A stretch of 64,000 bases of DNA from Dehalococcoidia bacterium (GCA_963555985.3 OY820591.1:1184001-1248000); one strand, 5' to 3'. Numbered from the stretch's first letter, positions 27,407-41,953 are shown. Notes: generated by a model from the sequence alone, not told the origin. Numbers and translations: made by a program.

Positions 27407-27426
27407 TCAAGCCCAAAACGCAACTC

Positions 27427-27570
27427 CTCCCCGACCGCTCTCCCCCTTGAGGGGGAGATGCCCCAACGGGGCAGAGGGGGTGAAAACGCCACACCCAGCA
27501 CAGACGCCCCAACCCAGATCCCCTCTCTCCCCCTTGCGGGGGGAGATGTCACGTAGTGACAGAGGGGGGG
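27427..27570. repeat. Two REP-like double-hairpin elements upstream of HTH paralog 1
   Basis: tctccccc-ttga-gggggaga + tgcccc-aac-ggggca; tctccccc-ttgc-gggggaga + tgtcac-gta-gtgaca. Confidence 0.85.
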
Positions 27571-27614
27571 TCCTCTGCCCCCGGCCTAAGCGAGGAGACA
27601 GAAAGAAACCAAAC

Positions 27615-27626
27615 GAACCCAAGTTC
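27615..27626. promoter_or_regulatory. Candidate LexA (GAAC-N4-GTTC) box
   Basis: GAAC-CCAA-GTTC, perfect core, about 96 bp upstream of the 27722 ATG. Confidence 0.4.
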
Positions 27627-27721
27627 CGCTTCTGTCACCCAGACAACACCCGCGACATAGCCCAACCAGCTATCATCAGAACAAGTAAGCCACACAACCG
27701 TACTCAGAAGGAGCACCGCTC

Positions 27722-28402
27722 ATGAACCTCTCGCCCCAGCGCCGACGACGAGCCCTCGAAGCCCACCATCTCCGCCAGCACGGCCTCCCCCTGCGCGTCA
27801 TCGCCAAGCAACTCGGCGTCTCCCACGCCACCGTGCACAGCGACCTCAAGCTGCTCGAGACCCACTGGAGCGAGATCGCCCAGGCGGTCGCCGACGACCT
27901 CCTGCTCGACCAGCTCAGCCAGCTCCGTCAGCGGCTCGCTCAGCACATGGAGTCCAACCCCTACGAGCTGCTCCAGGGCGAGCAGCTGCGCCCGCCCGAC
28001 CAGATCCGCCTCTTCGCCGTGCAGATGCAGGAGTTCAACACGCTCTGCCGCGAGATTCGGCGCACCGCCGAAGCGGTCCAACGCCGCGCCCGCCAGCGCC
28101 TCAAGGAGCAACCCGCCGAAGCCCCGGACTATCCCGAGGCCGAACTGACGGACGCGCCCCGGACTCGCAAGCGGGCCCGTCCCCAGCCGAGCGAGCGTCC
28201 AACCCCGGCTGAACCGGGCCAACCGGAGCTGACCACGGCTAACCACGTCAACGGGCGTTCGCCCCAGCCGGCAAAGGAAATGCGTCCAATCGCAGCGTCG
28301 CAAGAAAATGCTCCCGCCGACCCCGACTTCGAGCGTCTCCTGAGCGAAGCCCAGACCTTCCTCGCACAGCTCTCCCCCTTCGCCGACGCCGCCGGCGGCT
28401 GA
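27722..28402 (+). CDS. Orphan HTH + coiled-coil protein, paralog 1
   Basis: LRVIAKQLGVSHATVHSDL HTH; AAGGAG RBS; clear similarity to 40396-41202. Confidence 0.75.
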   Translation: MNLSPQRRRRALEAHHLRQHGLPLRVIAKQLGVSHATVHSDLKLLETHWSEIAQAVADDLLLDQLSQLRQRLAQHMESNPYELLQGEQLRPPDQIRLFAVQMQEFNTLCREIRRTAEAVQRRARQRLKEQPAEAPDYPEAELTDAPRTRKRARPQPSERPTPAEPGQPELTTANHVNGRSPQPAKEMRPIAASQENAPADPDFERLLSEAQTFLAQLSPFADAAGG

Positions 28403-28410
28403 CTCCGCCC

Positions 28411-28642
28411 CTCCCTGACCGCTCTCCCCCTTGAGAGCCTGTCCCCGCGCAGGGAGACCGTCGCAACACTCCCATCTCCGTCATTCCCGCGAACGCGGGA
28501 ATCCATACGGCGTCTCGAGTGGGACGTGGATTCCCGCCTGCGGAGAGCGTTGCCAAAGGCGCGATCTCCCCTCTCCCCCTGCATCGCGGGGGGAGATGTC
28601 GCGCAGAGCCTGCCCCCGCGAAGGCGGGGGACAGAGGGGGGT
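28411..28642. repeat. Nested mosaic of palindromic repeats downstream of HTH paralog 1
   Basis: ctccctgaccgctctcccccttgag (24/25 match to 27427), GAGACCGTCGCAACA, dRS3-like 28483-28502, 23-nt insert 28607-28629. Confidence 0.85.
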
Positions 28643-28774
28643 CCCAACCAACCTTCACCGACACCCACACATACCAACCCCCACCCCGCCCTAGCTGGAA
28701 ATCCCCATTTCGCCTTAGCATTGTCCCGATCGTTCGTGCGAGCGCCCCATCCCGCTCGCAGACTGAGGCGGATC

Positions 28775-31354
28775 ATGCCCGGACCGCTTGACGGCATTCG
28801 CGTCCTCGACCTGTCACGCCACGTGGCCGGCCCCTACGCATCCAAGCTGCTGGCCGACTACGGCGCTCGCGTGATCAAAGCCGAGCCGCGCGGCGGCGAC
28901 CCCGCACGCCGTTTCGGACCCTTCCCCAATCGCAAGCCCAACCCCGAAGCCTCCGGACTCTTCCTCTTTCTCAACACCAACAAACAATCGATCGTGGTCG
29001 ATCCGCACACCGACGACGGCGCCGCGACCGTCCGCCGACTCGCCCGCCAGGTCGACGTCGTGATTGAAGACCTGCCGCCGGGTGAGGCAGCCGAGGCGGG
29101 CTGGGGTTGGGAAGTCCTGCACGCGCTCAATCCGAGGCTGGTGCTGTGCTCGATCACGCCGTTCGGCCAGACCGGACCCTATCGCGGCTACCGCGGCTCC
29201 GAACTGACCCTGCAAGCGATCGGCGGCCCGCTCCACGCCACCGGCGCGGCCGACCGCGAACCGCTCAAACTGGCTGGCCACTATGCCCAATACCACGCCG
29301 GCGCGACCGCCGCGCTTGCCATTCTCCTGGCTCTGCGGCGTACCGCTGGGCATCGGCGCGCCGGCGACTGGATCGACCTCTCCATCTACCGCTGTCAGGC
29401 TGGCTGCCGCGATCGGCGCACGATCCATCTCACCGCTGCCGCCTACAGCGGCGTCAGCCCCAAGCGCGCGCAGCCGGGCAGCAGGCCGGTTGGCTTCGGC
29501 ATCTACTCCTGCGCCGACGGCTCCGTCAATCTGATGGGCGCCGGCAATCGTTTGCCCCGCCTGCTCCGCTGGATCGGACGCGAAGACCTGCTTGAAGATC
29601 CCGACTACCTCGCCGGCCCCCGACCGGGCTCCGGCTTCGGCCGGCGCGTCGATCAAGCCGTAGAAGCGTTCCTGGCCGAAATCGGGAAGGTAGAGGCCAC
29701 CGCTCAGGCGCAGGCCGCCGGACTGCTCGCAGGCGCAGTCATGACCGTTGCCGACGTGCTCGACGACCCCCAGCTCGCCGCGCGCGAGTGGTGGCGGCCA
29801 ATCGCCCACTGGCACGGTGACGAACTGCCTTACCCGGGATTGCCCTTCCGCCTCAGCGCCAGCCCGCCCGATCCGCCCAAGCGAGCGCCCCGGTTGGGCG
29901 AACATTCGCGGATCGTGTTCGACTTCGCCCCGCCCGATCCCGCAGAGGCCGCCCCCCCTCCCGTGCGGCCCGACGCCGACGATCCGCTCCCGCTGCCGCT
30001 CGAGGGCATCCGCGTTGCCGCGATCACAGTCGTTTGGGCCGGACCCCACGTCGCCCAGCTGCTCGCGGAGTGGGGCGCGGACGTGATCCAGGTCGAACCC
30101 GTCAACCGCATCCAGCCCTACACCAGAGGAGCCGAAAACGTTCCCACTCGTGACGCGCTGGAGCGCGGCGCCGCGCGCGGTGTCCAACCCCAATACCCGG
30201 ACGCAGACCCCGGTGATGACCCTTGGAACCGCTTCGCCTCCTTCAACTCCCACGCGCGCAACAAACGATCCATGACCTGCGACATCATGTCGCCGGAGGG
30301 ACGCGAAGCGTTTCTGAAGCTGATTCGGCATTGCGACGTACTCGTCGAAAACAACGTCCCCCAGACCATCGCCAAGGCCGGGATCACCTGGGAAGAGCTG
30401 CGCGAGGTCAATCCACGCCTGATCATGCTGCGAATGCCCGCCTTCGGCCTCGAAGGGCCGTACAGCTCCTACCGCGCCTTTGGGCTGCACGTCGAAGCCA
30501 TGGTCGGCCACACCCATCTGCGCGGATATCCCGATCGCGGGCCGGAAGGAATCGGCGAAACGCTCGCCTCCGACGGCATGTCCGGCGTGCAGGGGGCAGT
30601 CGCAGTGCTGATGGCGCTGCGCCAGCGCGACCTCAGCGGCGAGGGCCAGCAGATCGAGATGCCGCTCACCGAAGGATTCATCCCCACCCTGGCCGAATAC
30701 CTCTTCGACTACACCATGAACGGCGAGAATCCGCCTCCGCAGGCGAACTCGCACCGCTGGAGCGCCCCCCACGGCGTCTACCCCTGTGAGGGCGACGATC
30801 AGTGGATCGCGATTGACGTTGGTTCCGATGCGGAGTTCGTAGCGCTCTGCACCGCGCTCGCCGCCGGACCCGGCAAGGCCGCGGTCCAGTCTGAGATCAC
30901 GCACGCCCCGCTCGACACCCGTTTCGCCCACGCCGAAGGGCGGCGCGCCCACCGCATCGAACTCGACCGCCTGATCGCGATCGAGACTCAAGCCTGGAAC
31001 AAACAGGATCTCTTCCACGCCCTCCAACAAGCCGGCGTCTGCGCCGCGCCCCTGAACGATCCCTTGGAAGCGATGGCTGATCCCCACCTGAACGCGGTCG
31101 GCTTTTTCGAGGAACAGACAATCGAGGGCGTGGGTACGCACCGCTATCCCGGCCTCACCATTCAGATGCGGCGCACATCCAATCAGCTGCGCACGCCGCC
31201 CTCCAAACTGGGCGAACATAACCGTGAGCTCTACCTCGACTTGCTCGGATACAGCGAAGCTCAACTCGCTGCGCTGGAAGCGCGCGGGCTGGTGGGCGAC
31301 GCCTATCCGGACGAACTCCTGCCCCGACACATGCGCAGAGATCCCGCCTCCTGA
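28775..31354 (+). CDS. Family III CoA-transferase (CaiB/BaiF), tandem double domain
   Basis: PLDGIRVLDL..AGP..LADYGA and PLEGIRV..WAGP..LAEWGA; N.NK/RNKRS in both halves. Confidence 0.9.
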   Translation: MPGPLDGIRVLDLSRHVAGPYASKLLADYGARVIKAEPRGGDPARRFGPFPNRKPNPEASGLFLFLNTNKQSIVVDPHTDDGAATVRRLARQVDVVIEDLPPGEAAEAGWGWEVLHALNPRLVLCSITPFGQTGPYRGYRGSELTLQAIGGPLHATGAADREPLKLAGHYAQYHAGATAALAILLALRRTAGHRRAGDWIDLSIYRCQAGCRDRRTIHLTAAAYSGVSPKRAQPGSRPVGFGIYSCADGSVNLMGAGNRLPRLLRWIGREDLLEDPDYLAGPRPGSGFGRRVDQAVEAFLAEIGKVEATAQAQAAGLLAGAVMTVADVLDDPQLAAREWWRPIAHWHGDELPYPGLPFRLSASPPDPPKRAPRLGEHSRIVFDFAPPDPAEAAPPPVRPDADDPLPLPLEGIRVAAITVVWAGPHVAQLLAEWGADVIQVEPVNRIQPYTRGAENVPTRDALERGAARGVQPQYPDADPGDDPWNRFASFNSHARNKRSMTCDIMSPEGREAFLKLIRHCDVLVENNVPQTIAKAGITWEELREVNPRLIMLRMPAFGLEGPYSSYRAFGLHVEAMVGHTHLRGYPDRGPEGIGETLASDGMSGVQGAVAVLMALRQRDLSGEGQQIEMPLTEGFIPTLAEYLFDYTMNGENPPPQANSHRWSAPHGVYPCEGDDQWIAIDVGSDAEFVALCTALAAGPGKAAVQSEITHAPLDTRFAHAEGRRAHRIELDRLIAIETQAWNKQDLFHALQQAGVCAAPLNDPLEAMADPHLNAVGFFEEQTIEGVGTHRYPGLTIQMRRTSNQLRTPPSKLGEHNRELYLDLLGYSEAQLAALEARGLVGDAYPDELLPRHMRRDPAS

Positions 31355-31375
31355 CACACTCTCGATCGGAGAACG

Positions 31376-31978
31376 ATGATGCCTGAACCACGCCTCGCCC
31401 CACAGACCTTCGAGACGCTGGACGACGCCCAGCGAACGCTCTGGGACAACATCACAACGGGGCCGCGCGCCAACCCCGATCGCCCTCACGGCGGACTCGC
31501 CGGCTCGGACGGCGCTCTGATTGGTCCCTTCAACGCCCTCTTCCTCTCGCCCGAAATCGGCGACGCCGCCCAGAAGCTGGGCGCGGCCCTGCGCTACAGC
31601 ACGGAGCTCCCCGCCGACCTGCTGGAAACCGCGATCATCACCATCGGCGGTCACTGGCGCGCCAACTTCGAGTTCTGGGCGCACGCCCGCCTCGCCGCCA
31701 ATGCAGGCGTCGACCAAGACGCGATCGAGGCCGTCCACGACGGCAAGTCGGCCAACTTTGGCAACGACGCCCAGCAGACCGTGTACCAGTTCGGTCGGGA
31801 ACTGATCGAGAACCAACGGGTGTCCAACGAGACCTACGAAGCGCTCAAGGCCCTCGTCGGCGAGCGGGGCGTCTTCGAAATCGCAACCGTGATGGGCTAC
31901 TACTCCCTGGTCTCAATCGGCCTCAACGCCTTCAACGTCGCCATGCCCCCAGGCGTCGAAGCCCCCTTCGACGACTAG
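31376..31978 (+). CDS. Carboxymuconolactone decarboxylase/AhpD-like protein
   Basis: GPFNA..SP, ETAII..EFWAH, V.GYY. Confidence 0.75.
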   Translation: MMPEPRLAPQTFETLDDAQRTLWDNITTGPRANPDRPHGGLAGSDGALIGPFNALFLSPEIGDAAQKLGAALRYSTELPADLLETAIITIGGHWRANFEFWAHARLAANAGVDQDAIEAVHDGKSANFGNDAQQTVYQFGRELIENQRVSNETYEALKALVGERGVFEIATVMGYYSLVSIGLNAFNVAMPPGVEAPFDD

Positions 31979-31984
31979 AGGCGC

Positions 31985-34900
31985 CTAGAACTGCAACCAG
32001 CGCGTCGGCCCGACCGCGTCGATCTCGACCCAGAGCGCCTGACCGTACGCCAACGGCTCCGTCGCCGAGCGCGACTCCTCCACGTCGTACGTCCGACCGT
32101 TCAGCTTCACCGACACGAGCGGCTCCGCCTTCATCCCGCGCAGCGGAGCGATGGCGTCCGTCAGCGGTTTGTCCGGCGTGCCCAGCCAGCAGACGAGGTT
32201 GCGGCCGGGTTGCAGGTGGAATCCGACACCGCCGTAGGGCGCATCGGGCCAGTGGAGGGTTTGGCCGTTGCGGACGCGGACGTAGTAGGCGCGGCCCTGT
32301 TCGAGTTGGTCGAGGGTGTTCGCTGAGGCGGAGATATCGGGCGAGTACATTTGCCACGATGCGGCGTCCGCGTCCCAGGCGTAGATGGCCTGGAGGCCGT
32401 CAAGGTTGAGGTCTGCGATCGGTTGGGTGGCGTCGGTCCAACCTCGGAGATGGAGGCCCTGGCTCAGGGTTTCGCCCTGCGCCGGGTCGTGGATCGTGTA
32501 GTAGGCGACAGTGCGGCGCTCAAGTTCGTCGGCGTTGGTGATCCGAACCGATCCGATGTAGAAGCCAGGTGCGAGCCAGAAGCCGAAATCGGCGCGTCCC
32601 CAGAGTCGACCGCTGAACACTGCATCGCTCATCCGAATCGTCAATGTCTTCCATGTCCGATTACCGGTCTCCGCTCCACCCCAATGCCATACCGGCCGTT
32701 CGGGATCATCGATCGTGTCGACCGTCACGTTCAGAGAGTCTCCTACGTCAGCAGCATCAAAGTACTCGATCTTCAACGTGACGTCGCCGCCCCCATCGGG
32801 GACGATGCGACGGTCGACCCCAAAGGCGAACTGCCGCCACTGATCAACAGGCAGCGGGCGTCTTGCGGGTCTACCAAGATGTTCGAATGTCCCGACGGTT
32901 TGATCTGGAATGGCCAGCTCGACGATGCCATCCTCTTCGTTCACCAGACCTAGGCGAATCTCCACAACGAACTCTTGCCGCTCCTTTTCGGTGACGAGCA
33001 CATTTTGGTAACTGAACGTGATACCGCCGGAGCGCACAATGCCTCCGCGGCTCCCGATCGAATCGCCCTTCCGATTAACGCCAGCGACTTGAACACTCGT
33101 GCCTTCCTCCCAGTCCGAAAGGCTCGCTATCACAATCGATGTGTCCGAACCCATCGGCTGGCGCACAACAACTCCGTTCGATTTCCGTTGCTCTATCAGA
33201 TAGTGCTCACCTGAGCTCAACACATGGCTGTTGAATCTCTGGAAGACACCCCCTGTGATCGATCCATCACTTAACATGGAGACGACTCCGCCTGGAACCA
33301 GTGTATGATCTCCTACATCAACTGGCCGCTCAGCCCAGTTCGCGGTGACTGTCGCATTGGCAAAGCGGCTAATCGTCATGCTGTTGAGATCACCTGACCA
33401 TTCGTACATTTGCTCATCAGCGTACGGACCCAGAACGTGGTACGCGAATGCAGTGACCACAGGGAGCCAGGGACTGTGATAAGCTTGCAGATCAAAGTTG
33501 AGTTGGTGTCCATAGGCGAGACTCCAACGCAGCATGTCTAGAGACTCCGTTACTTCTGGTCCACCTGTACCAGCGAGTTGCACTTGGTACAAGAGCACCT
33601 TGTCACGCACCATCATCGAAGAAAGTGGGTAGTACTCCCATACCACTTCACCCCATTGACGCTTCCAGTGCTGGTCCCAAGTCAACATCGTAGACATGAA
33701 GGCGACCACAGTCTCAGCGACGCGGTCGTCACCCGATTCAGTTGTGAGCATTTGCGATCGGTACTCTTTAGTGAAATCGAACCAGAGATCCGAATATGCA
33801 CGCGGCGAGGGTGACGATTCGGCGTAGTCCCAAATCCACGGACGTGCTCCAATCTGATCGAGGTAGATGAGATCAGATCGTTCTTGGTGATGGAGGTTCA
33901 TCAGATAGGCAAGGCGCTCTTGCGCACGCGAATCTGATGGTGAGATCACAACGCCTGGTTTGAAGTCGAAGAAGGTCTCCCGCACCGGATCCCAATAGGC
34001 ATATTCCTCTCGGCGAACTGTGCCATCCGGCTCAATCACGGCGAGATCTTCGAGCGTCGTGCCACGTTCTGATAGCCAAGTTTCTGAGGGAGTGCCCGGA
34101 TTCCACCAGGTCGGATTGATATAGGGCATGACCAAGTAGCCTTGGCGTTGGAGAGCCCCGAAAGTATCTCGGTACCCCTGTACTCCTCCTAGTCGCGGGT
34201 CTGGCGGCCACCAATCGGGGTTCTGGCGGTCGAACTCCAACTCAGTGAAAGCGGGATTTTGCAAGATCCCCGGTGCTGCGAGGTCATTGATTGCGTCTGC
34301 GTATTCCGCAAAAGTCTGAAATCGCGCCCAATCGACGGCATGTAAGCCGTGCATGGCGAACTGCGGTGATCGAAGAAGCACGCCGTGCAAGTCGCCGAGC
34401 TTCTCTTCGAGACTGGGGTATGTGTCGATCAAGTTTACCCTGCGGTAGTCGGCAATCACGGCTGGTAGCAGTTCACCGATACTAATCCGCACGCTAGGTG
34501 TCTGGAACGACCCTGGCGCTTCCGCGCCGACGGAGAAAACGTGCTCGCGGATCGTTGCAGCCGGACGAGATTGCCATAGGGCGCGATACCCAGATTGGAT
34601 TGGAGCACGCGGGCCGGGTGAAATCGCGTAGGTTGCCAAGCTTCCAGCGTCACAATCCACCCATGTGAGGTCGCCGCATTGAGTCCCACCCGGATAGGTG
34701 TCAGTGTAATGGTGGTTGTCAAGCTCGAAGAAGGAGCGTTGCAACAATGTGCCCGGTAATTTCGTGATTAGGGCTTGCTTGATATTGGCCACAGTGAAAC
34801 GGAGGTGGTTCGGAAAGGAGAGCCCGTCCAGACGCGGACCTTGCTCATGCTGTACACGAGCTGTTAGATCAAACCACGGAGAATCGCTGGTTTCGATGTC

Positions 34901-35320
34901 GACCCGCACACTGAGTCGTACTATTTCGCCGTGAAAATCCCAATTCATGCTGAGGTGAGCTTGGCCGTCCCAGTTGGCGCGAAAGTTCGCCTGTTGCACT
35001 CTGCTGCTACCGATCCGCTGTGGCTCGGCGCTAAAATATGCTGCCCACAGCGACCTGTCCGCGTTGCCCTCCGAGACTACGCCGCCGCCGCGTTTGTCGT
35101 AGATTCTGGTGATGGCTCCGTTTCGACGATCGAAGTCCACCTCGTAGTAGCGGTTGCCCAGCGTTAGCTTCGAGGCGGACTCTCTGAAGTAGGGAGCGTC
35201 GTGCGTTTGCTCTTCTTGCGCGCTGCTCCGTTTGCCGCCGAGGCCGAGCGCGGAGAGAGCGGCGCCGACGCCGAGCCGGGCGGCGGTTTGGAGGAGGCGG
35301 CGTCGGCTGAGCTTGGGCAT
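31985..35320 (-). CDS. Tat-exported putative glycoside-hydrolase-like protein with C-terminal duplicated surface domain
   Basis: SRRRLLQ twin-arginine signal; MPYINPTWW, IYLDQIG, TTESG TIM-barrel-like motifs; C-terminal L..G.NL..W repeats. Confidence 0.6.
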   Translation of the reverse strand: MPKLSRRRLLQTAARLGVGAALSALGLGGKRSSAQEEQTHDAPYFRESASKLTLGNRYYEVDFDRRNGAITRIYDKRGGGVVSEGNADRSLWAAYFSAEPQRIGSSRVQQANFRANWDGQAHLSMNWDFHGEIVRLSVRVDIETSDSPWFDLTARVQHEQGPRLDGLSFPNHLRFTVANIKQALITKLPGTLLQRSFFELDNHHYTDTYPGGTQCGDLTWVDCDAGSLATYAISPGPRAPIQSGYRALWQSRPAATIREHVFSVGAEAPGSFQTPSVRISIGELLPAVIADYRRVNLIDTYPSLEEKLGDLHGVLLRSPQFAMHGLHAVDWARFQTFAEYADAINDLAAPGILQNPAFTELEFDRQNPDWWPPDPRLGGVQGYRDTFGALQRQGYLVMPYINPTWWNPGTPSETWLSERGTTLEDLAVIEPDGTVRREEYAYWDPVRETFFDFKPGVVISPSDSRAQERLAYLMNLHHQERSDLIYLDQIGARPWIWDYAESSPSPRAYSDLWFDFTKEYRSQMLTTESGDDRVAETVVAFMSTMLTWDQHWKRQWGEVVWEYYPLSSMMVRDKVLLYQVQLAGTGGPEVTESLDMLRWSLAYGHQLNFDLQAYHSPWLPVVTAFAYHVLGPYADEQMYEWSGDLNSMTISRFANATVTANWAERPVDVGDHTLVPGGVVSMLSDGSITGGVFQRFNSHVLSSGEHYLIEQRKSNGVVVRQPMGSDTSIVIASLSDWEEGTSVQVAGVNRKGDSIGSRGGIVRSGGITFSYQNVLVTEKERQEFVVEIRLGLVNEEDGIVELAIPDQTVGTFEHLGRPARRPLPVDQWRQFAFGVDRRIVPDGGGDVTLKIEYFDAADVGDSLNVTVDTIDDPERPVWHWGGAETGNRTWKTLTIRMSDAVFSGRLWGRADFGFWLAPGFYIGSVRITNADELERRTVAYYTIHDPAQGETLSQGLHLRGWTDATQPIADLNLDGLQAIYAWDADAASWQMYSPDISASANTLDQLEQGRAYYVRVRNGQTLHWPDAPYGGVGFHLQPGRNLVCWLGTPDKPLTDAIAPLRGMKAEPLVSVKLNGRTYDVEESRSATEPLAYGQALWVEIDAVGPTRWLQF

Positions 35321-35415
35321 GGCTGTCCGGTGAAAGAGGCTGTGGAGTTGGGCAAGGGGAGCGGATAGGATAGCCCGCGAGCGGGTGGACGCCGCCCTGC
35401 GATTGGGGGCTACTT

Positions 35416-36264
35416 GTGCTGACCGACGCGGATCGCGCCTTCTTCGATCAGAACGGTTATCTCGTCGTGCGGAACTTGATTCCGCCCGAGCTGGTGGCGC
35501 GCGTAACGGACGCCATCTGGGACTTCCTCGAATTCGACCGCGACGATCCCTCCAACTGGTACCGCGAACCGCACCGCGCCAACGGCATGATCGAGATGTA
35601 CCACCATCAAGCGCTCTGGGACGTGCGTCAGCATCCGCCGGTCTACGAGCTCTTCCGCGATCTGTTCGGGCGCGACGACCTCTGGGTCTTCATCGACCGC
35701 GCCAACCTCAAACCGCCGCCCCATCCCGATCACCCTCAGTACGACCATCGCGGGATGGTGCATTGGGATATCGACGTGCGTCAGCAGCCCCTGCCCTTCC
35801 TTGTCCAGGGCGTGCTCTACCTCGTGGACACCAAAGCGGGCGAAGGCGGCTTTCAGTGCGTGCCGGGCGTCCACCGCTGGGTCTCCGACTGGGCGCAGGG
35901 ACGGCCGGATGACGACATTCGGCACCAGCAGTTGCAAGAGCGCTTTCCCGGTGAGATCGCGCCGGTCGTCGAGGTAGAGGCGAACGCGGGCGACTTCATC
36001 ATCTGGCACTCCGCGCTGCCGCACGGCAACAGCCGCAACAAGTCGGACAAGCCTCGCTTGGCGCAGTACGTGCGCTGCTTCCCGGCCGAACCGGGGAACC
36101 GCGCACTCCGCGAAGCGCGGATTCAGTCTTGGCGCGAACGCACCCACCCGGCCTTTCAAAATCCGCGCGCCTTTCCGGGCGACCCACGCAGCCGCGAAGC
36201 CGAATCCCCGGCGGCGGAACTGTCGCCGCTCGGACGTCGCTTGCTCGGCCTGAAGGACTGGTAG
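35416..36264 (+). CDS. Phytanoyl-CoA dioxygenase (PhyH) family
   Basis: FDQNGYLVV, HWD, GGFQCVPG.H, AGD..IWHS.LPHG..N. Confidence 0.88.
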   Translation: MLTDADRAFFDQNGYLVVRNLIPPELVARVTDAIWDFLEFDRDDPSNWYREPHRANGMIEMYHHQALWDVRQHPPVYELFRDLFGRDDLWVFIDRANLKPPPHPDHPQYDHRGMVHWDIDVRQQPLPFLVQGVLYLVDTKAGEGGFQCVPGVHRWVSDWAQGRPDDDIRHQQLQERFPGEIAPVVEVEANAGDFIIWHSALPHGNSRNKSDKPRLAQYVRCFPAEPGNRALREARIQSWRERTHPAFQNPRAFPGDPRSREAESPAAELSPLGRRLLGLKDW

Positions 36265-36413
36265 GCAAAGCGCTTGATTGCGCTTTCGCAGTTGCCGCTA
36301 CATAATCCAGCGAGCCGAGCTAGTGTCGCCCTCGCGAACACGCGCCCGGAACGGCTCGGCGTCCGCCGCCATGACTGTGGTTGAGGGGCGACGGGCAACA
36401 AGCCAAGCTGCCG

Positions 36414-37340
36414 ATGCTGATCGTTGAGTTCCTGCTGGTTGTCGCGCTGATCGGCGCTGAGGCTGCCGCCGAGCCTCCGCCGGTGGTGCAGGCGCTCTAT
36501 CTGGGGCCGAGAATCCTGGACATGCGCGGGGAAGTGGATGCGGAGGTGCAGGAGCGAGTCTTCCGCTTTGCCGAGCAGGGTCTGATCAACGGAATCGTCC
36601 TGGATATCAAGCACGAGGACGGGCGGGTGTTGAGTCTGGCCGCGACGGAGCGGGCGCGGCGGTATGGGGCGGTCAAAGGCCAGGCGGGAGCAGGCGTGAT
36701 CGAGTTTCTGGAGGAGGCTCGGCGGCGAGGGATTTGGCTGATCGGACGGGTGACGGCGTTCAAAGACATCGTTGCCTATCACCACGTCGAACCTCACCAG
36801 CGTCTGTCTCGGGAGGATTGTGATTGGCGTACCTGCTGGCTGGCGCCGCATTCCCGCTCGGCGCGCGAATACGTGATTGAGATCGCCACCGCGGCAGCGC
36901 CCTACTTTGACGAGATCATGTTCGACTATGTGCGCTACCCGGATGACCACATCTTTGCTTCCGCGAGCCGGCGCGAGGCGGCGGTGACGGCGTTTGCGCG
37001 TGAGGCTTGCGCTGCAATTCGTGAAGTTGGAGCGCAGGTGTCGTTCGCAGTGTTCGCGGGGGTGGCGGTCTGGCGGGGCGAACAGGGAATTGGCCAGACG
37101 GCGACGATGCCGGGCTGCGCGGACACGGTCTCGCCGATGGTCTATCCGTCTCACGAGGGTGTGGAACGGTTGGGAGTGGATCGCTTGGTGGCTGCGGCGG
37201 CGGAACGTTGGGGCGGACACCGGCTGCGGCCCTGGTACGAGTTTCACAACCATGGCCGCCAGATCTCAAGCGGCGAGCCGTATGCGGAGGCAGGCTGGCT
37301 CATCTGGGATCCGAAAGGGTATGCGCTGGAGCAGTGGTGA
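36414..37340 (+). CDS. Putative glycoside hydrolase (DUF4015-like)
   Basis: VLDIK..DG, R...FKD, FDEIMFDYVRYPD, SPMVYPSH, LRPW. Confidence 0.7.
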   Translation: MLIVEFLLVVALIGAEAAAEPPPVVQALYLGPRILDMRGEVDAEVQERVFRFAEQGLINGIVLDIKHEDGRVLSLAATERARRYGAVKGQAGAGVIEFLEEARRRGIWLIGRVTAFKDIVAYHHVEPHQRLSREDCDWRTCWLAPHSRSAREYVIEIATAAAPYFDEIMFDYVRYPDDHIFASASRREAAVTAFAREACAAIREVGAQVSFAVFAGVAVWRGEQGIGQTATMPGCADTVSPMVYPSHEGVERLGVDRLVAAAAERWGGHRLRPWYEFHNHGRQISSGEPYAEAGWLIWDPKGYALEQW

Positions 37341-37352
37341 GCGCGGATCGGC

Positions 37353-38288
37353 TCAGGCTTCGTCGGCGCGGGGCCACTGCACGATGGCGCTGCCCGCCAC
37401 CAGCAAGGCGACGCCCAGGGCCAGTTCGGGACCGACTGATTCGCCCAGGATGAGCCAGCTCCAGATCACGCCGAAGATCGGCGCCATCAGCATGGTCGCC
37501 GCCACGCGCGAGGGCAGGTAGCGCTGGAGCAGCCAGACGTTGCCGATGAAGCCGAACCCCCCGATCACGACGCCTTGATAGAGCAACGCAGCGAGGAACT
37601 CCGGGGACCAGACCGGCCCCGATTCCAGCAACCATCCCGCGAGCCCGAAGACGATCACGCTCCAAACCGACTGAGTCATCAAGAGCCGGGCCGGGTGGAT
37701 GCCCTGCGAGAAGTGCGAGAGGTAGATCTGCCGGGTGCCGAGCAGCATCGCCGAGGTGAGAGTCATCAGGTCTCCGCCCCAGCTTGCGCCCTCATCGGCG
37801 AGGCCGCCGGCGAAGACGACCACGACGCCGGAGTAGGCCAAGAGCAGGCCGCCGGTGCGGCCGCGGCTCATGCGGTCGCCGGGGACGAGGAAGTGTCCGA
37901 GGATCGCAGTCCAGAGTGGGAAGGTGAAGATCAGGACGGAAGCGTGTCCGGCGGTGGTGTGGTCGCCGCCGACGTACATGAGCATGGTCTGAACGACGAA
38001 GAGGACGCCGAGTCCGAACAGCGCGCGCCACTCTCGGCGCGGCGGCATGAGCGAGGTTCGGGTGACGATGGCGTAGAGGATCACGACCAGGCCGCCGAGC
38101 GTCATGCGCAGGGCGGAGAGTCGGAGCGGGCCGGCGTCGGCGAGACCGGCTTTGATGGCGACGGGCTGGCCGCCCCAAAGCATGACCAGCAACAGAGCGA
38201 ACGCGCCGGAGCGGAGCGTCAGCGGACGCCGGGCAGGCGCAGCGGGCGGCAGCAGCGTCGTCTGGGCGGCGCGGGGGCGTTGGGACAT
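37353..38288 (-). CDS. DMT/EamA family transporter
   Basis: 10 TM helices in two EamA repeats. Confidence 0.85.
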   Translation of the reverse strand: MSQRPRAAQTTLLPPAAPARRPLTLRSGAFALLLVMLWGGQPVAIKAGLADAGPLRLSALRMTLGGLVVILYAIVTRTSLMPPRREWRALFGLGVLFVVQTMLMYVGGDHTTAGHASVLIFTFPLWTAILGHFLVPGDRMSRGRTGGLLLAYSGVVVVFAGGLADEGASWGGDLMTLTSAMLLGTRQIYLSHFSQGIHPARLLMTQSVWSVIVFGLAGWLLESGPVWSPEFLAALLYQGVVIGGFGFIGNVWLLQRYLPSRVAATMLMAPIFGVIWSWLILGESVGPELALGVALLVAGSAIVQWPRADEA

Positions 38289-38487
38289 TCCCGCAGGTTA
38301 GGCGGCGGGATCGATGGGCTTTAGGTTGGCGGGAGGCGAGCGCATTCGGGTTGGCGTGTTCGCAGTTCGGCGCTTGTCGGGTCTGCCTTCTCTGTCTCCG
38401 CGTGCGCAGGGGACAGGCCCCACGACAAGCGCGGGTATGACGAGTAACGGCATAGCGGGGGCGAGTGTGGCGGCTACGTATGGGTCT

Positions 38488-39843
38488 CTAGAAAGGGTGG
38501 GCGCGGACGGTGGTGATGGCGGCGAGATGGGTTCGGATTTGACGCCAGCTGTCGCCGGCGTCGGGGCTGGCGTAGAGTTCGCCGCCGCTGGAGCCGAGGT
38601 AGAGGCCGAGGGGATCGAGGCCGTCGGCGCCGAGGGCTTGGCGGTAGATCGTCTGGTGGAAGTCTTGCTGGGGCAGGCCGTCGCGGAGGGCTTGCCAGGA
38701 TTGGCCGGCGTCGCGGGTGCGGTAGACGGCGAGTTGGCCGCCTCGAGGCATTCGGGACTGATCGAAATCGAGCGGAACGAACCAGGCGGCGTCGGGGTCG
38801 TGCGGATCGATGGCGGCAGCGAAACCGAACTCGCCCGGGAGATCTTGTCCGACTTCGACCCAGGTGTGGCCGTCGTCGTCGGAGCGGTAGCGACCGAAGT
38901 GATTTTGTTGCCAGAGGCGTCCGCGCTGCTTGGGGTGGGCGAAGAGCGAGTGGACGCAGGGCGCGAAGTCTTGCAGTTCGGGGGGCATATGGTCGGAGCG
39001 GATGCCGTGGTTGCGCGGCTCCCAACTGCGTCCGGCGTCGTTGGAGGCGAAGACGCCGGTGGCGGAGCCGCCGACGATGATGCGCTCGGGGTCGTGGGGA
39101 TCGGCGGAGATGTGGTGGATCATGAGTCCGGCCGCGCCGGGCATCCAATGCTTGCTGTAGGGATGCTCGGCCAGGGCGGTGAGTTCTTGCCAGCTCGCGC
39201 CATGGTCATCAGAGCGGAACAATGCGGCGGGCATGACGCCGGCGTAGAGCGTGCCGTTCTGCGCGCCCGGCGTGATCGTCCAGACGACCTCCAGCGAGCG
39301 TTCGCCGTCGTCAAAGGCGGGTACCGGCGCTTCGTTCCAGGTTTGGCCGTGATCGTCGGAATAGTGCAGGCGGGGTCCCCACTGCATGTGGCTGACGGCG
39401 GCCCAGAGGCGTCCGCTGCGCTCGTCGCCGACGGCGTAATCGACCTGCCAGCCGGGGAACGCGAGAGGCAGCCACTGCCAGTCCGTTCGGCGCGGATCGC
39501 TACAACCGACGACCAGTCCTTTCTTGGTTCCCACGAGCAAGAGGACAGATCGGTCGGCGTCGGCGCTTGAGCCTCCTGAGACTGCGGGCAAGATATGGAG
39601 CCAATCACCGTCGGCGAGCGGATCGCTGAGACCGGCGCGATCGGCGACCTGTTCGTCGTTGATGAACAGATTGACGTGGGGGCGGAGGCGGTGGGCGTCG
39701 TCGAGGAGATAGGTGGACAGCTGCGGGTGAGCGTCGAGGAGCGCGTCCATCGCCTCGCGCGCGCTCGAACCGTGTACGCGGACCAGCTCAGGAGCTTGCA
39801 CGTGCGCGCGCAGCCCGCGAGCCAAGCGAATATCGATCGTCAT
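38488..39843 (-). CDS. MoaD/ThiS ubiquitin-like domain fused to BNR/Asp-box beta-propeller
   Basis: N-terminal LRPHVNLFIN..DGD..ILPAVSGG, then GTKKGL and repeated SxDxGxTW Asp boxes. Confidence 0.8.
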   Translation of the reverse strand: MTIDIRLARGLRAHVQAPELVRVHGSSAREAMDALLDAHPQLSTYLLDDAHRLRPHVNLFINDEQVADRAGLSDPLADGDWLHILPAVSGGSSADADRSVLLLVGTKKGLVVGCSDPRRTDWQWLPLAFPGWQVDYAVGDERSGRLWAAVSHMQWGPRLHYSDDHGQTWNEAPVPAFDDGERSLEVVWTITPGAQNGTLYAGVMPAALFRSDDHGASWQELTALAEHPYSKHWMPGAAGLMIHHISADPHDPERIIVGGSATGVFASNDAGRSWEPRNHGIRSDHMPPELQDFAPCVHSLFAHPKQRGRLWQQNHFGRYRSDDDGHTWVEVGQDLPGEFGFAAAIDPHDPDAAWFVPLDFDQSRMPRGGQLAVYRTRDAGQSWQALRDGLPQQDFHQTIYRQALGADGLDPLGLYLGSSGGELYASPDAGDSWRQIRTHLAAITTVRAHPF

Positions 39844-40059
39844 CGTTGTTCCCTCCGCAGCGCGGCTACAGGATTGATACAGAACACACGTACGCTCACT
39901 TTACCCGGCTGGATGGGCTTGTGCATGTCGGCACATCAACTCCACGTAACGCCTGGCGTCAGTGGCGCTGGGGATGTGTGGGGTGGATCGTGCGGCTTCC
40001 TCTGTCCCCTAGCGACGCAGGGGCAGGCACTACGTGACCTCTCCCTCCCCGCCTGCGGA

Positions 40060-40368
40060 GGCCCCCTGCCTGCGCAGGCGCAGGCTTTTGCAACAGTCTC
40101 TTGGGGGCGCGTTGGAGCTTGGTGGACCGGATCGCGCGATGTGAGGTCGGTGGTACGACCAGATATGGAAGCTGCTTCAGACTTGAGAGGTTCGAGATTC
40201 CCGCCTGCGCGGGAATGACGGAATTTGGGATTGCGCGCAGGTCTCTTCAAAGGGGGAGATCGATCATGGTTTGACTTAGGAGGTGAGACGTGGCGTAGTT
40301 AGGTAGCACGGCGGCGTTCTCACCCCCTCTGTCACTGTGTGACATCTCCCCCTCAAGGGGGAGAGCGA
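40060..40368. repeat. Repeat mosaic downstream of HTH paralog 2, including left copy of ~120-bp direct repeat
   Basis: ttttgcaacagtctc 40086-40100; direct repeat 40129-40258 with dRS3-like 40197-40216; REP-like double hairpin 40320-40366. Confidence 0.85.
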
Positions 40369-40395
40369 TCATGGGGAGAGGAGAGCGGAGGGTGG

Positions 40396-41202
40396 TTAGC
40401 CGGCGGCTGCGGTCTGGATTTGGATGTGCTCCTCCGACTGGCCCTGGAGCTGGGGGAAGCGGTCGACGACTTCGCTGAGCAGAGCGTCGTGTGCGGGCGG
40501 CTCGGGGAGTTGAACGGGGTTGGAAGGAATTTTTTCCTCGGGGGCCGGAATTTCGACGATCTCCCGCTCTGCGCTGGCGATCGTCGATTCGGGCTGTAAA
40601 GCTGTGGAAGGTTGGGGAGTTTCGGCCGGGGTTGGCGCCTCTTCAGCGTGGAGGTTGGGTTGGGCGGGTTGGGGAGATTCTGGAAGAATTTTTTCCTGCG
40701 GGGCCGGAATTTCGACGATCTCACGCTCTGCACTGGAGATCGTCGATTCGGGCTGTAAGGCTGTGGAAGGTTGGGGGGTATCGGCCGCGGTTTGGGCTTG
40801 CTCGGCTTGGAGGCCGGGTTGGTCGGGGCGCTGCGCGGCGCGGCGGTGGACCGCGCCGACGGTGCGCCGGATCTCGCGGACGAGGGCGGTCAGTTGCGCG
40901 TCCTGAGCGTCGCGGGCGCGGAGGTATTCGACCGGGGTGAGGCGGTCGGCGAGGCGCGCGACTTCGTCGCCGCGCGTGGCGAGGGCGAGCCGGAACTGGA
41001 GCAGTTGCAGGGATTCGAGCAGGAGATCGTCGGCGGCCGGGGCGGCGATGCTGCTCCAGTGGGCTTCGAGCAGGCGGAGGTCGTCGCGGACGGTGGTGTG
41101 GGAGAGGCCGAGTTGTTCGCCGATCTTGCGCAGGGAGTGGCCTTGCTGTTGGAGGTAGTGGACGCGGAGGGCGCGCCGTCGTCGGGCGGGCTGGATCTGC
41201 AT
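40396..41202 (-). CDS. Orphan HTH + coiled-coil protein, paralog 2, with 159-bp internal duplication
   Basis: LRKIGEQLGLSHTTVRDDL HTH; AADDLLL and REIRRT shared with paralog 1; AAAGGA RBS. Confidence 0.75.
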   Translation of the reverse strand: MQIQPARRRRALRVHYLQQQGHSLRKIGEQLGLSHTTVRDDLRLLEAHWSSIAAPAADDLLLESLQLLQFRLALATRGDEVARLADRLTPVEYLRARDAQDAQLTALVREIRRTVGAVHRRAAQRPDQPGLQAEQAQTAADTPQPSTALQPESTISSAEREIVEIPAPQEKILPESPQPAQPNLHAEEAPTPAETPQPSTALQPESTIASAEREIVEIPAPEEKIPSNPVQLPEPPAHDALLSEVVDRFPQLQGQSEEHIQIQTAAAG

Positions 41203-41296
41203 GGGTAGTCCTTTCTGAGTGATACATGGGTTCTGTGGCGACTATACTGAATTGGTGTTCGGGGTTGTGTATCGTGGTTTATGGAGGGGGAGGAGC

Positions 41297-41506
41297 GGAT
41301 CGTGCAATGTGAGGTCGGTGGTACGACCAGATTGGGAGTGACTTCAGACTTGGTTGCTTCGAGATTCCCGCCTGCGCGGGAATGACGGAAATGGGGATTA
41401 GGCGCAGGCCTTCCTCCGCAGGAATGACGGAGATGGGGGTTTTGCAACGGTCTCCCTGCGCGGGAATGACGGAAATGGGGATTATGCGCAGGTCTCCAAG
41501 GGGGAG
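41297..41506. repeat. Right copy of direct repeat with nested partial copies
   Basis: 26-nt identity 41307-41332 vs 40139-40164; dRS3-like 41364-41383; ggaatgacgga.atgggg x3; ttttgcaacggtctc 41440-41454. Confidence 0.85.
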
Positions 41507-41557
41507 TGGAAGGACAGTGTGTGCCGGGGGCGTACCTTAGTGGGTGAGGAGGTGCTT

Positions 41558-41953
41558 GTGTTGCAGGTTCAGGCTCTGGATCACATTGTGTTGGCGGTGG
41601 CGGACGTTTCGCGTTCGCTGGAGTGGTACTGCGAGCGGCTGGGGCTTGCTCCGGTGCGGGTGGAGGCTTGGCGTGCGGGGGAGGTTCCGTTTCCGTCGGT
41701 GCGGATTAGCGCGGACACGATTGTTGATCTGATCGCGCGGGATTCGGATGCGGCTGCGGGCGCTCGCAACCTCGATCACTTTTGTCTAGTGGTCGGCGCT
41801 GAGGACTTGGAGCGTGTGCGCGCCTCGGACGAGTTTGAGATCGTTCGCGATCCCGATTTCGCGCTGTTCGGCGCACGCGGGATGGCTGATGGTCTCTACA
41901 TCCTCGATCCGGACGGGAACGAGATCGAGTTGCGGGCCTATTCGAGCCCGTAG
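41558..41953 (+). CDS. VOC/glyoxalase family protein
   Basis: LDHIVLAV, LDHFCL, DPDGNEIEL; GGAGG RBS. Confidence 0.85.
   Translation: MLQVQALDHIVLAVADVSRSLEWYCERLGLAPVRVEAWRAGEVPFPSVRISADTIVDLIARDSDAAAGARNLDHFCLVVGAEDLERVRASDEFEIVRDPDFALFGARGMADGLYILDPDGNEIELRAYSSP

Follow-up and report, generated by a model that had tools for sequence, protein, structure and literature searches.

Helix-turn-helix gene cassettes dispersed among REP-like repeats in a Dehalococcoidia genome: candidate non-autonomous mobile elements

Introduction

Mobile insertion cassettes (MICs), e.g., MIC231 of Bacillus cereus, and composite elements bounded by MITEs (miniature inverted-repeat transposable elements) represent one kind of bacterial element with which a small dispersed gene unit can be compared. 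Another is the repetitive extragenic palindromic sequence (REP) with its REP-associated tyrosine transposase (RAYT), a gene reported to be typically present in one copy per genome (PMC5581495). Tagged REPs of the CGTC-1 family, the type to which dRS3 of Neisseria belongs, have a CGTC tag, an 8-bp stem starting from AT, a 4-nt loop and a CCA tail; REP-type repeats are placed downstream of genes and CGTC REPs are reported without a dedicated transposase (Di Nocera et al. 2013, PMC3733652). This study deals with two related genes encoding helix-turn-helix (HTH) proteins in a 64-kb stretch of Dehalococcoidia bacterium (GCA_963555985.3, OY820591.1:1184001-1248000; the whole stretch is referred to as the window), each of which forms, with a conserved leader and flanking palindromes, a cassette found at many sites of the genome. 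A first-pass annotation made from the window sequence had described them as orphan genes of a dispersed mini-element, whose protein might bind or help spread the palindromes or might be a domesticated terminase-like factor.

The cassettes resemble REP/RAYT systems (REPINs) in that the gene is bracketed by short GC-rich palindromes scattered in hundreds of genomic copies, and one repeat family (R1, below) is nearly confined to genomes carrying the gene. They differ in that the protein is without an HUH/Y1 domain (no match to Y1_Tnp, PF01797, at E<=1), in the presence of about 20 diverged cassette copies (18-25 matches in the source genome) instead of one, and in the flanking repeats, which are mostly direct and of which two of the three families also occur without the gene. 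With MICs and MITE composites they have in common a small non-autonomous unit, a non-transposase gene, many sites and, presumably, movement in trans. However, neither terminal inverted repeats nor a matching autonomous insertion sequence (IS) was found for the cassettes, the ends of the IS30-family element (the only multi-copy IS) do not bracket them, and the passenger gene plus leader is the conserved core of the unit.

The modelled protein is similar to phage small terminases (e.g., G20c and P74-26) in having an HTH, long antiparallel helices and a flexible C-terminal part, and its gene is linked via a common leader to cassettes encoding a terminase large subunit (TerL). On the other hand, the fold match is weak (E 0.4, TM 0.26-0.34), TerL is not adjacent, no relative of the HTH family was found in viral contigs and no Pfam model of small terminases (TerS) reached its cut-off. 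The likeness to CGTC-1 REPs in tag, stem, loop and tail concerns a neighbouring repeat (R2) and not the gene, and such REPs are common in relatives without the HTH gene. The best sequence matches to the cassette HTH, all sub-threshold, are the N-termini of IS30/IS21/IS630-type transposases and sigma-70 region 4, but no DDE or other catalytic domain follows the HTH. Literature searches gave no description of the protein family, the leader, terminase-driven cassettes or these Chloroflexi repeats, though supplementary files might list the repeats. The category that fits best is a REP-like-repeat-associated non-autonomous gene cassette built around an uncharacterised protein family.

Results

Copies and insertion sites

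The source genome (G000; 3.33 Mb, 11 contigs including C1 and C5, 96% complete, 7.5% contamination) gave 18 tblastn matches and 25 profile matches to the family, and the two window genes are two of at least 20 family copies in it; 20 distinct genes were followed individually. As the first-pass annotation had stated, the two open reading frames (ORFs) are paralogous (BLASTP, 38% identity over 232 columns, E 9e-30), with the similarity concentrated in the first 130 residues (about 50% identity) and weaker matches in the Pro/Glu-rich tail. All of the motifs quoted there (RRRRAL, HWS..IA, ADDLLL, REIRRT and the AAGG/AAAG ends) were present. Groups A-D, together with a short divergent copy, make up subfamily I (signature RRRR..HWS..AADDLLL..REIRRT); the more remote subfamily II has the signature ARRAKLL..LAADQL..RELRLLL.

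Copy 1 and its closest paralogue (copy 2, G000:C1:1586354) share 1027 nt at 94% identity, and the group C copies, to which the second window gene belongs, are 85-93% identical to each other over 0.8-1 kb. Outside the cassette the paralogous loci have only short repeats in common, and their neighbours are unrelated. G013, G018, G006 and G024, all of a neighbouring genus, have retained the gene order around both window copies (among others acyl-CoA dehydrogenase, double CoA-transferase, 200-aa protein, PhyH dioxygenase, EamA transporter, ThiS/BNR protein and glyoxalase-fold protein). At site 1, a gap of about 115 nt without HTH gene was found in G013, G018 and G006 and an unrelated 1.6-kb insert in G024, and at site 2 all four genomes have a gap of about 70-130 nt without HTH gene. 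The empty sites that the first-pass annotation had proposed to look for in relatives were thus found at both positions. Its picture of a dispersed mini-element agrees with the multiple copies, the repeated unit of about 1 kb, the unrelated flanks and the sites empty in syntenic relatives; the single-copy, syntenic homologues that it had considered as the contrary outcome were not what was found.

Contigs assembled from four sequencing runs end at the cassette-flanking repeats. A contig joint from these runs, 27569-28571, was ruled out as an empty-site allele because it has only 23 nt on one side and joins two repeat copies. A function of the protein as a local regulator was rejected, since each copy has different neighbours and relatives are without the gene at the equivalent sites. 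An integron gene cassette was also rejected, as the unit has its own leader and is dispersed singly, in a genome with two tyrosine recombinases (attC was not searched for).

Repeat islands around the genes

Words of 14 nt with 15 or more genomic occurrences (813 words, 1.66% of bases) were masked as repeats. In the window, islands of more than 100 nt (27438-27569, 28422-28645, 40040-40365 and 41311-41483) are confined to the four flanks of the two genes, in accordance with the earlier statement that the densest repeat clusters lie there. Enrichment was tested against other called genes on C1, where a rough, purpose-made codon-usage caller gave 2696 genes: 60 or more repeat-masked nt were counted in both 400-nt flanks of 8/16 family genes and of 31/2680 others (Fisher p 1e-11), two of these 31 being distant family members. 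Similarly, 26 of the 245 larger repeat islands of C1 are within 400 nt of a family gene, compared with about 2 expected from the share of the contig that is covered. The word noticed earlier after both stop codons, ga(c/t)cgctctcccccttgag, lies 14 nt after the stop of copy 1 and about 27 nt after that of the second gene. Of 43 external loci, 31 have an R1- or R5-type hairpin head no more than 150 nt after the HTH stop and 19 have one upstream of the leader, compared with a background of 25 matches in 191,124 bp at a distance from the HTH gene.

The two 450-nt flanks were compared with each other for 18 copies. Of the 30 high-scoring segment pairs (HSPs) obtained, which are not independent of each other, 28 were direct, with at least one in 11 copies. 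Among 83 control genes with repeats on both sides, 37 HSPs were direct and 17 inverted, so that the bias towards direct orientation is stronger for the family and not unique to it. Direct brackets are expected if a circle integrates at a repeat, and they argue against a composite element with inverted ends.

Repeat families

At least four repeat modules recur. R1 is a double hairpin, CTCTCCCCC..GGGGGAGATG-hairpin-CAGAGGGGG, that folds as two adjacent stems, and is also written GGGGAGATG-N5-16-CAGAGGGGG. R5 is GGGAGAGGG-YTR-GGGTGAGGG, also written GGGAGAGGG..GGTGAGGG. R2 fits the CGTC-1 REP, with CGTC tag, 8-bp stem starting AT, 4-nt loop and CCA tail. R4 is a 24-nt hairpin (AGCCTGYCCCCGCG.AGGCGGGG) inserted in the loops of other repeats; it was observed at window positions 28436-28453 at many places of the genome and in loci L063, L073, L085, L098 and L099, nesting right after ..TTGAG, ..GTAG or ..TTAG inside palindromic-repeat loops, and looks like a loop-targeting miniature element.

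The families differ in their relation to the HTH gene. R1 reached at least 5 matches in 7 of the 8 gene-positive genomes, had none in the remaining one (G019) and a single match in the 33 others together; within genus g7, R1 and the HTH family occur jointly in three genomes and are both essentially lacking in two. By contrast, genomes without the HTH family can be rich in R2 (G024 and G029) or in R5 (genus g9, G021, G024 and G031). Neither RAYT (PF01797) nor IS110 (PF01548) was found in the 96% complete source genome, and control genomes for PF01797 were matched; two tyrosine recombinase genes and one serine recombinase gene are present. None of the Rfam families matched the region; two tRNAs in other parts of the window were the sole matches.

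The one classical multi-copy IS of the genome is an IS30-family element of 1.07-1.1 kb, present in 10 copies of about 99% identity. Nine of these are at the identical position inside the R2 hairpin (..GCGGGAA / IS / GAATC..), which indicates that this element targets the CGTC palindrome and that the repeat clusters are demonstrable landing pads. Examples adjoin HTH copies 9 and 7 (G000:C1 2797620-2798636 and 259961-260977).

Conserved leader

The cassette leader is about 90-110 nt long and contains a box of 14-16 nt, GTCAACCAC[GA]ACACAC or the variant TGTCA(A/C)CCAGACAACAC, at a distance of about 78-90 nt from the ATG. The box has been kept in different genomes and is followed in order by CGAACA, a TATAGT-like element, AGAAC and a Shine-Dalgarno sequence. 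In group C the leader word is AAACCACGACACAC, 78-82 nt before the ATG. The shared leader word quoted in the first-pass annotation is common to both window genes, but it corresponds only to the ribosome-binding region, and the longer upstream box is the more significant part.

A 13-mer of the leader with at most 1 mismatch gave 29 matches on C1, against about 1 expected by a calculation made for this analysis, and nearly all box matches on this contig are 78-99 nt before the start of an HTH gene or of a gene of a 118-aa family (below). Under a strict 16-mer rule the box was present in 11/20 family genes and in 36/2678 other genes, 17 of them of the 118-aa family; six more family genes, including copy 1, have a variant one base longer, read by eye. 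In other metagenome-assembled genome (MAG) records the box was located at -74 to -81 in 33/55 loci, with the following elements conserved too, although the external proteins had no more than 35-47% identity with the query. Conservation is tighter in the leader than in the protein.

In copies 1 and 2, a perfect GAAC-N4-GTTC was also observed, 107 nt ahead of the start codon (27615-27626 and G000:C1:1586246). This word occurs 21 times on C1, only 12 of them classed outside gene bodies, and many leaders of other genomes have AGAAC-N4-GT nearer the start codon. It might be an SOS-type operator, which is taken as a lead only; the upstream regions of lexA and recA of the source genome have no clear box of this type, and the SOS idea was not confirmed.

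Distribution and selection

The profile search covered 41 genomes, i.e., the source genome and 40 relatives, of which 16 were sampled from other families of the class. Among the relatives, strong matches were restricted to two genera and were always multi-copy (5, 18, 10, 0 and 0 in the genomes of g7; 6, 7, 9 and 7 in those of g8). No strong match was obtained in 33 of the 41 genomes and none in the 16 from other families; four other genomes had one weak HTH-only match each. One search gave 58 homologous proteins, and a scan of one genome per species gave 62 loci, many per genome, all in Dehalococcoidia, Chloroflexota or Chloroflexi MAG records. The designation as orphan can therefore not be kept as regards homologues, although it holds in the sense that no Pfam, NCBIfam or PHROG model reached its cut-off. 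No relative was found in viral contigs scanned with the family alignment, where all 82 pattern matches were rejected by tblastn.

The phylogenetic tree included 9 copies of the source genome and 43 of the 62 external loci, 19 short, partial or contig-end-cut loci being omitted. Several deep subfamilies were common to different genomes, and well-supported genome-specific clades were formed by 5 rows of the source genome, 4 of OZ241962, 5 of JAJDYG and 3 of OZ219765. The genome labels required 25 changes on the tree, compared with a mean of 38.2 after shuffling; the observed 25 was reached in 0/200 shuffles. For the N-terminal 132 codons, dN/dS was 0.11-0.33 in all 15 group C pairs and 0.22 between copies 1 and 2; the copies are under purifying selection.

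Predicted protein

No Pfam, NCBIfam or PHROG model reached its cut-off for the window proteins, and only generic HTH matches were returned. The best sub-threshold matches were HTH_23, HTH_38, Sigma70_r4 and the N-terminal part of IS21/IS30-type transposases (IS21 N-terminus, E 0.003, residues 16-143), with the best Pfam HTH scores at 20.8-22.9 bits compared with gathering cut-offs of 24.6-27; the paralogue G000:C1:581132 passes HTH_23 (27.2 bits, cut-off 24.6). The earlier remark that no HUH, DDE or recombinase motif is present is in agreement with these searches, in which no catalytic domain (DDE, DEDD, HUH, Ser or Tyr recombinase) appeared in the window proteins. A profile search of 1.84 billion representative proteins gave 31 matches below 1e-30, and no long fused form was found among library rows covering most of the N-terminal domain (rows of about 113-330 aa). 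Many of the other high-scoring library rows were multi-HTH repeat proteins in which the HTH alone was matched, in several stretches; these were taken as noise.

In the AlphaFold2 model, built on a 20-row alignment (mean predicted local distance difference test, pLDDT, 71), a three-helix HTH (5-19/24-31/35-) is predicted, the third helix of which runs on as a long helix (35-77) paired with a second one (91-129), all at pLDDT 85-96. The antiparallel hairpin thus modelled is likely a dimerisation or oligomerisation module. The tail is modelled as disordered from 135 to 200 (pLDDT <50), followed by a short helix at 201-216. Foldseek searches of PDB and BFVD returned no row at E<=1e-3, a wide structure search (VIA) returned generic helical hairpins (Z 8-9) and the DeoR HTH domain (Z 8.4), and the sole match in a profile search of PDB sequences was a designed HTH repeat protein. 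The tail peptide duplicated in the second protein reads ..STALQPESTI.SAEREIVEIPAP.EK.., and its S.PEQEIV motif is also conserved in homologues from other genomes, so that the "disordered" tail carries a selected short motif.

Terminase-linked cassettes

The 118-aa gene family had 28 matches, all in the source genome at the search sensitivity used. At five places (Table 1) the 118-aa gene overlaps the start of a 473-aa TerL gene (Terminase_6N, 37.8 bits, cut-off 22), in a unit of 2.1 kb whose five copies are 87-96% identical. About 20 more copies of the 118-aa gene were observed alone, as cassettes of about 0.5 kb; these retain some 100 nt aligning with the 5' end of TerL and all stop at one fixed point. 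The leader box is common to the HTH cassettes and to the amplified small-gene/TerL cassettes of the source genome. Most relatives with TerL have a single copy of it, with a gene of 89-118 aa in front, and in G018 this pair is also accompanied by an R1-like repeat and the leader box.

TerL is present in 8/8 genomes with multi-copy HTH genes and in 4/33 others, but no HTH copy adjoins it in G000, G007, G014, G018 or G022. No portal gene was found in the source genome, and the only capsid-like match was sub-threshold. The Foldseek rows for small terminases were poor (G20c and P74-26 at E 0.4-0.7, TM 0.26-0.34), no TerS Pfam model was obtained for the window proteins at E<=1 (PHROG TerS, E 0.32), and Terminase_5 scored 16.8 bits on a distant paralogue, below its cut-off of 20.3. 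The predicted complex of the HTH protein with TerL scored 0.01, which weighs neither way. The proposal of a domesticated terminase-like factor is not supported, given the Foldseek E of 0.4, the missing adjacency to TerL, the small partner that TerL already has, and the viral-contig scan, in which no relative was found.

Features of the window and other observations

The features are listed in Table 1. Within the conserved block two genes were observed that are missing from the syntenic blocks of G013, G018, G024 and G006: a gene at 31985-35320 (-) encoding a 1111-aa DUF6259 protein, of lower G+C (58-61%), and a DUF4015 putative glycosyl hydrolase gene at 36381-37340 (+). Neither has repeat islands at its flanks. 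Elsewhere in the source genome, two small GIY-YIG-like genes (G000:C1:84724-85014 and 2090337-2090681), 64% identical, have repeat islands on both sides, and an eight-member family of proteins of about 250 aa is dispersed, partly as tandem pairs (C1:216213, 1968241).

Table 1. Coordinates of the cassette genes, leaders, repeats and insertion sites (window positions unless a contig is given).
Feature	Position	Strand	Remarks
Site 1 insert	27407..28700	.	About 1.3 kb between acyl-CoA dehydrogenase stop 27406 and conserved CoA-transferase 5' region (ATG 28775)
26-nt direct repeat bracketing copy 1	27426-27451 with 28417..28435 element	+	96% identity
R1a double-hairpin repeat upstream of copy 1	27433..27490	+
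DNA common to copy 1 and G000:C1:1586354	27519..28542	+	Double-hairpin repeat through leader and gene into downstream repeats; unrelated beyond
R1b, second double-hairpin repeat upstream of copy 1	27520-27570	+
Variant leader box tgtcacccagacaacac of copy 1	27633..27649	+	About 75-90 nt before ATG
HTH cassette gene, copy 1	27722..28402	+	226 aa; N-terminal HTH, predicted long helical hairpin, Pro/Glu-rich tail, C-terminal AAGG
Post-stop hairpin-repeat head gaccgctctcccccttgag, carrying ga(c/t)cgctctcccccttgag	28417..28435	+	14 nt after copy 1 stop
Downstream repeat island of copy 1	28422..28645	.	14-mer repeat mask
R2 CGTC-tagged REP	28478..28505	+	ccgtc-attcccgc-gaac-gcgggaat-cca
Site 2 insert	39844..41518	.	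About 1.7 kb between divergent genes 38488-39843 (-) and 41519-41953 (+)
Direct repeat pair bracketing second gene	40121..40244 and 41289..41411	.	84-88% identity, about 125 nt, spacing 1167-1168 nt
R1a double-hairpin repeat directly 3' of second gene's stop	40313..40370	-
HTH cassette gene, group C copy (second window gene)	40396..41202	-	268 aa; internal tandem duplication in tail
142-nt tandem duplication in second gene's tail	40527-40668 and 40686-40827	-	87% identity
Leader box AAACCACGATACAC of second gene	41267..41280	-	78 nt before ATG
118-aa/TerL units	G000:C1:1952776-1954540 (locus L019), C1:107040, 664751, 1688611, 2029177

Discussion

Based on the results of this study, the account tentatively preferred is that each copy is a mobile but non-autonomous cassette with a gene for a DNA-binding regulator, and that functions provided in trans insert or duplicate it at REP-like repeats. 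The cassette would be a self-contained unit of about 0.9-1.2 kb, made up of the conserved leader, one ORF and a GC-rich hairpin repeat just after the stop. As judged from its sequence, the protein is probably a sequence-specific DNA binder with an HTH of the sigma-70-region-4 or IS30-N-terminus type and without a catalytic domain, the recognition helix of which would continue into the long helical hairpin, with a putatively disordered Pro/Glu-rich tail and a conserved ...AAG(G) C-terminus behind it. It may regulate its own leader and the other cassettes with the same box. Movement or duplication would be performed in trans, and the simplest means would be recombination involving the REP-like repeats of the flanks: a circle could be excised and re-enter at another repeat copy, producing the direct-repeat brackets observed, and the repeat clusters could be landing pads, the part that they play for the IS30-family element.

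Several points weigh against this account. Neither a transposase or recombinase nor a defined terminal sequence could be assigned to the cassette, and its 3' boundary varies between copies. The genomes with empty sites are all from outside the genus, at 60-77% protein identity, so that the direction of change is given by parsimony and the insertion is not witnessed as a recent event. Direct orientation is the majority in the controls as well (37/54 HSPs). Box and recognition helix do not vary together, as copies 16 and 17 have one helix and different box variants, and scans of the gene strand for a consensus sigma-70 promoter and for a terminator found none. The deep subfamilies shared across genomes, together with purifying selection, fit a family of host-beneficial regulators equally well. 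In addition, contig C5 is 97% identical to G000:C1:1360823-1366725 over 5.9 kb; with the estimated contamination of the assembly, this means that some copies may be strain variants assembled separately, and that copies 3 and 4 may be a single locus assembled twice.

Expansion of a transcription-factor family within the lineage, in which REP-like repeats pile up in dispensable hairpin-bearing flanks and no dedicated mobility is involved, is rather unlikely but has to be considered seriously. It is in accordance with purifying selection on all copies compared, with the retention of deep subfamilies in several genomes, with the lack of an associated transposase, with the occurrence of R2 and R5 without the HTH gene, and with the known position of REP-type repeats downstream of genes (PMC3733652). 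However, the window sites are empty in syntenic genomes, the neighbours of the copies are unrelated, the copy number ranges from 0 to 18 within g7, and the leader is kept more tightly than the protein and is common to unrelated amplified cassettes. Moreover, duplication into a new intergenic site, leader included, effectively amounts to mobility.

It is quite unlikely that the protein is a trans-acting partner of the palindromes, i.e., a non-HUH analogue of RAYT that would recognise R1 and promote its spread, alone or via a recruited host nuclease or recombinase. The association of R1 with the gene (at least 5 matches in 7/8 gene-positive genomes and 1 in the other 33), its joint presence or absence with the HTH family within g7, the R1/R5-type hairpins within 150 nt after the stop in 31/43 external loci, the lack of PF01797 and PF01548 in the source genome and the report of CGTC REPs without a dedicated transposase (PMC3733652) would be consistent with such a partnership. 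On the other hand, R1 is missing from G019, which has 9 HTH matches, and has 5 matches in G007, which has 6; the protein has no catalytic domain; and the source genome has about 20 diverged copies compared with the single-copy RAYT (PMC5581495). The genomes are also kin, and counts of co-occurrence overstate their independence. The reading in which the protein spreads the palindromes is weakened in particular because R2 and R5, i.e., all repeat types but one of three, are successful in genomes that lack the gene.

A broader scheme, in which the HTH, 118-aa and small-gene/TerL cassettes would be one undescribed mobile system, with a terminase-type ATPase-nuclease, in place of a transposase or recombinase, cutting and moving the cassettes, the HTH and small proteins recognising sites and the palindrome clusters acting as docking sites, is regarded as very unlikely. 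That the HTH protein itself is a small-terminase-like DNA-recognition subunit working with the amplified TerL is highly improbable: the modelled layout of an HTH followed by a long helical hairpin is that of TerS, G20c and P74-26 are among the weak Foldseek rows, TerL has five copies in the source genome and accompanies the multi-copy HTH genes (8/8 genomes, 4/33 others), and the two kinds of cassette share the leader box, but the adjacency to TerL that this reading requires is lacking in all five genomes inspected, TerL is always preceded by its own overlapping 89-118-aa gene, no TerS model reached its Pfam cut-off, no relative was found in viral contigs, and the searches for phage genes gave no portal and only a sub-threshold capsid-like match.

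Should the cassettes move without encoding the enzyme for it, as in the preferred account, genes would be transported here by a route outside the current transposon catalogues; the candidates are a terminase-type nuclease provided in trans and recombination between REP-like repeats. This bears on the question of what moves or exploits REPs without a dedicated transposase, as raised in PMC3733652: the CGTC REPs are precise targets of an IS30-family element, and the repeat clusters are preferred insertion sites of gene cassettes. The cassettes also define an uncharacterised family of putative DNA-binding proteins with a very strongly conserved regulatory leader, and the box, the protein and the hairpins offer an experimental handle in an uncultivated clade of Dehalococcoidia.

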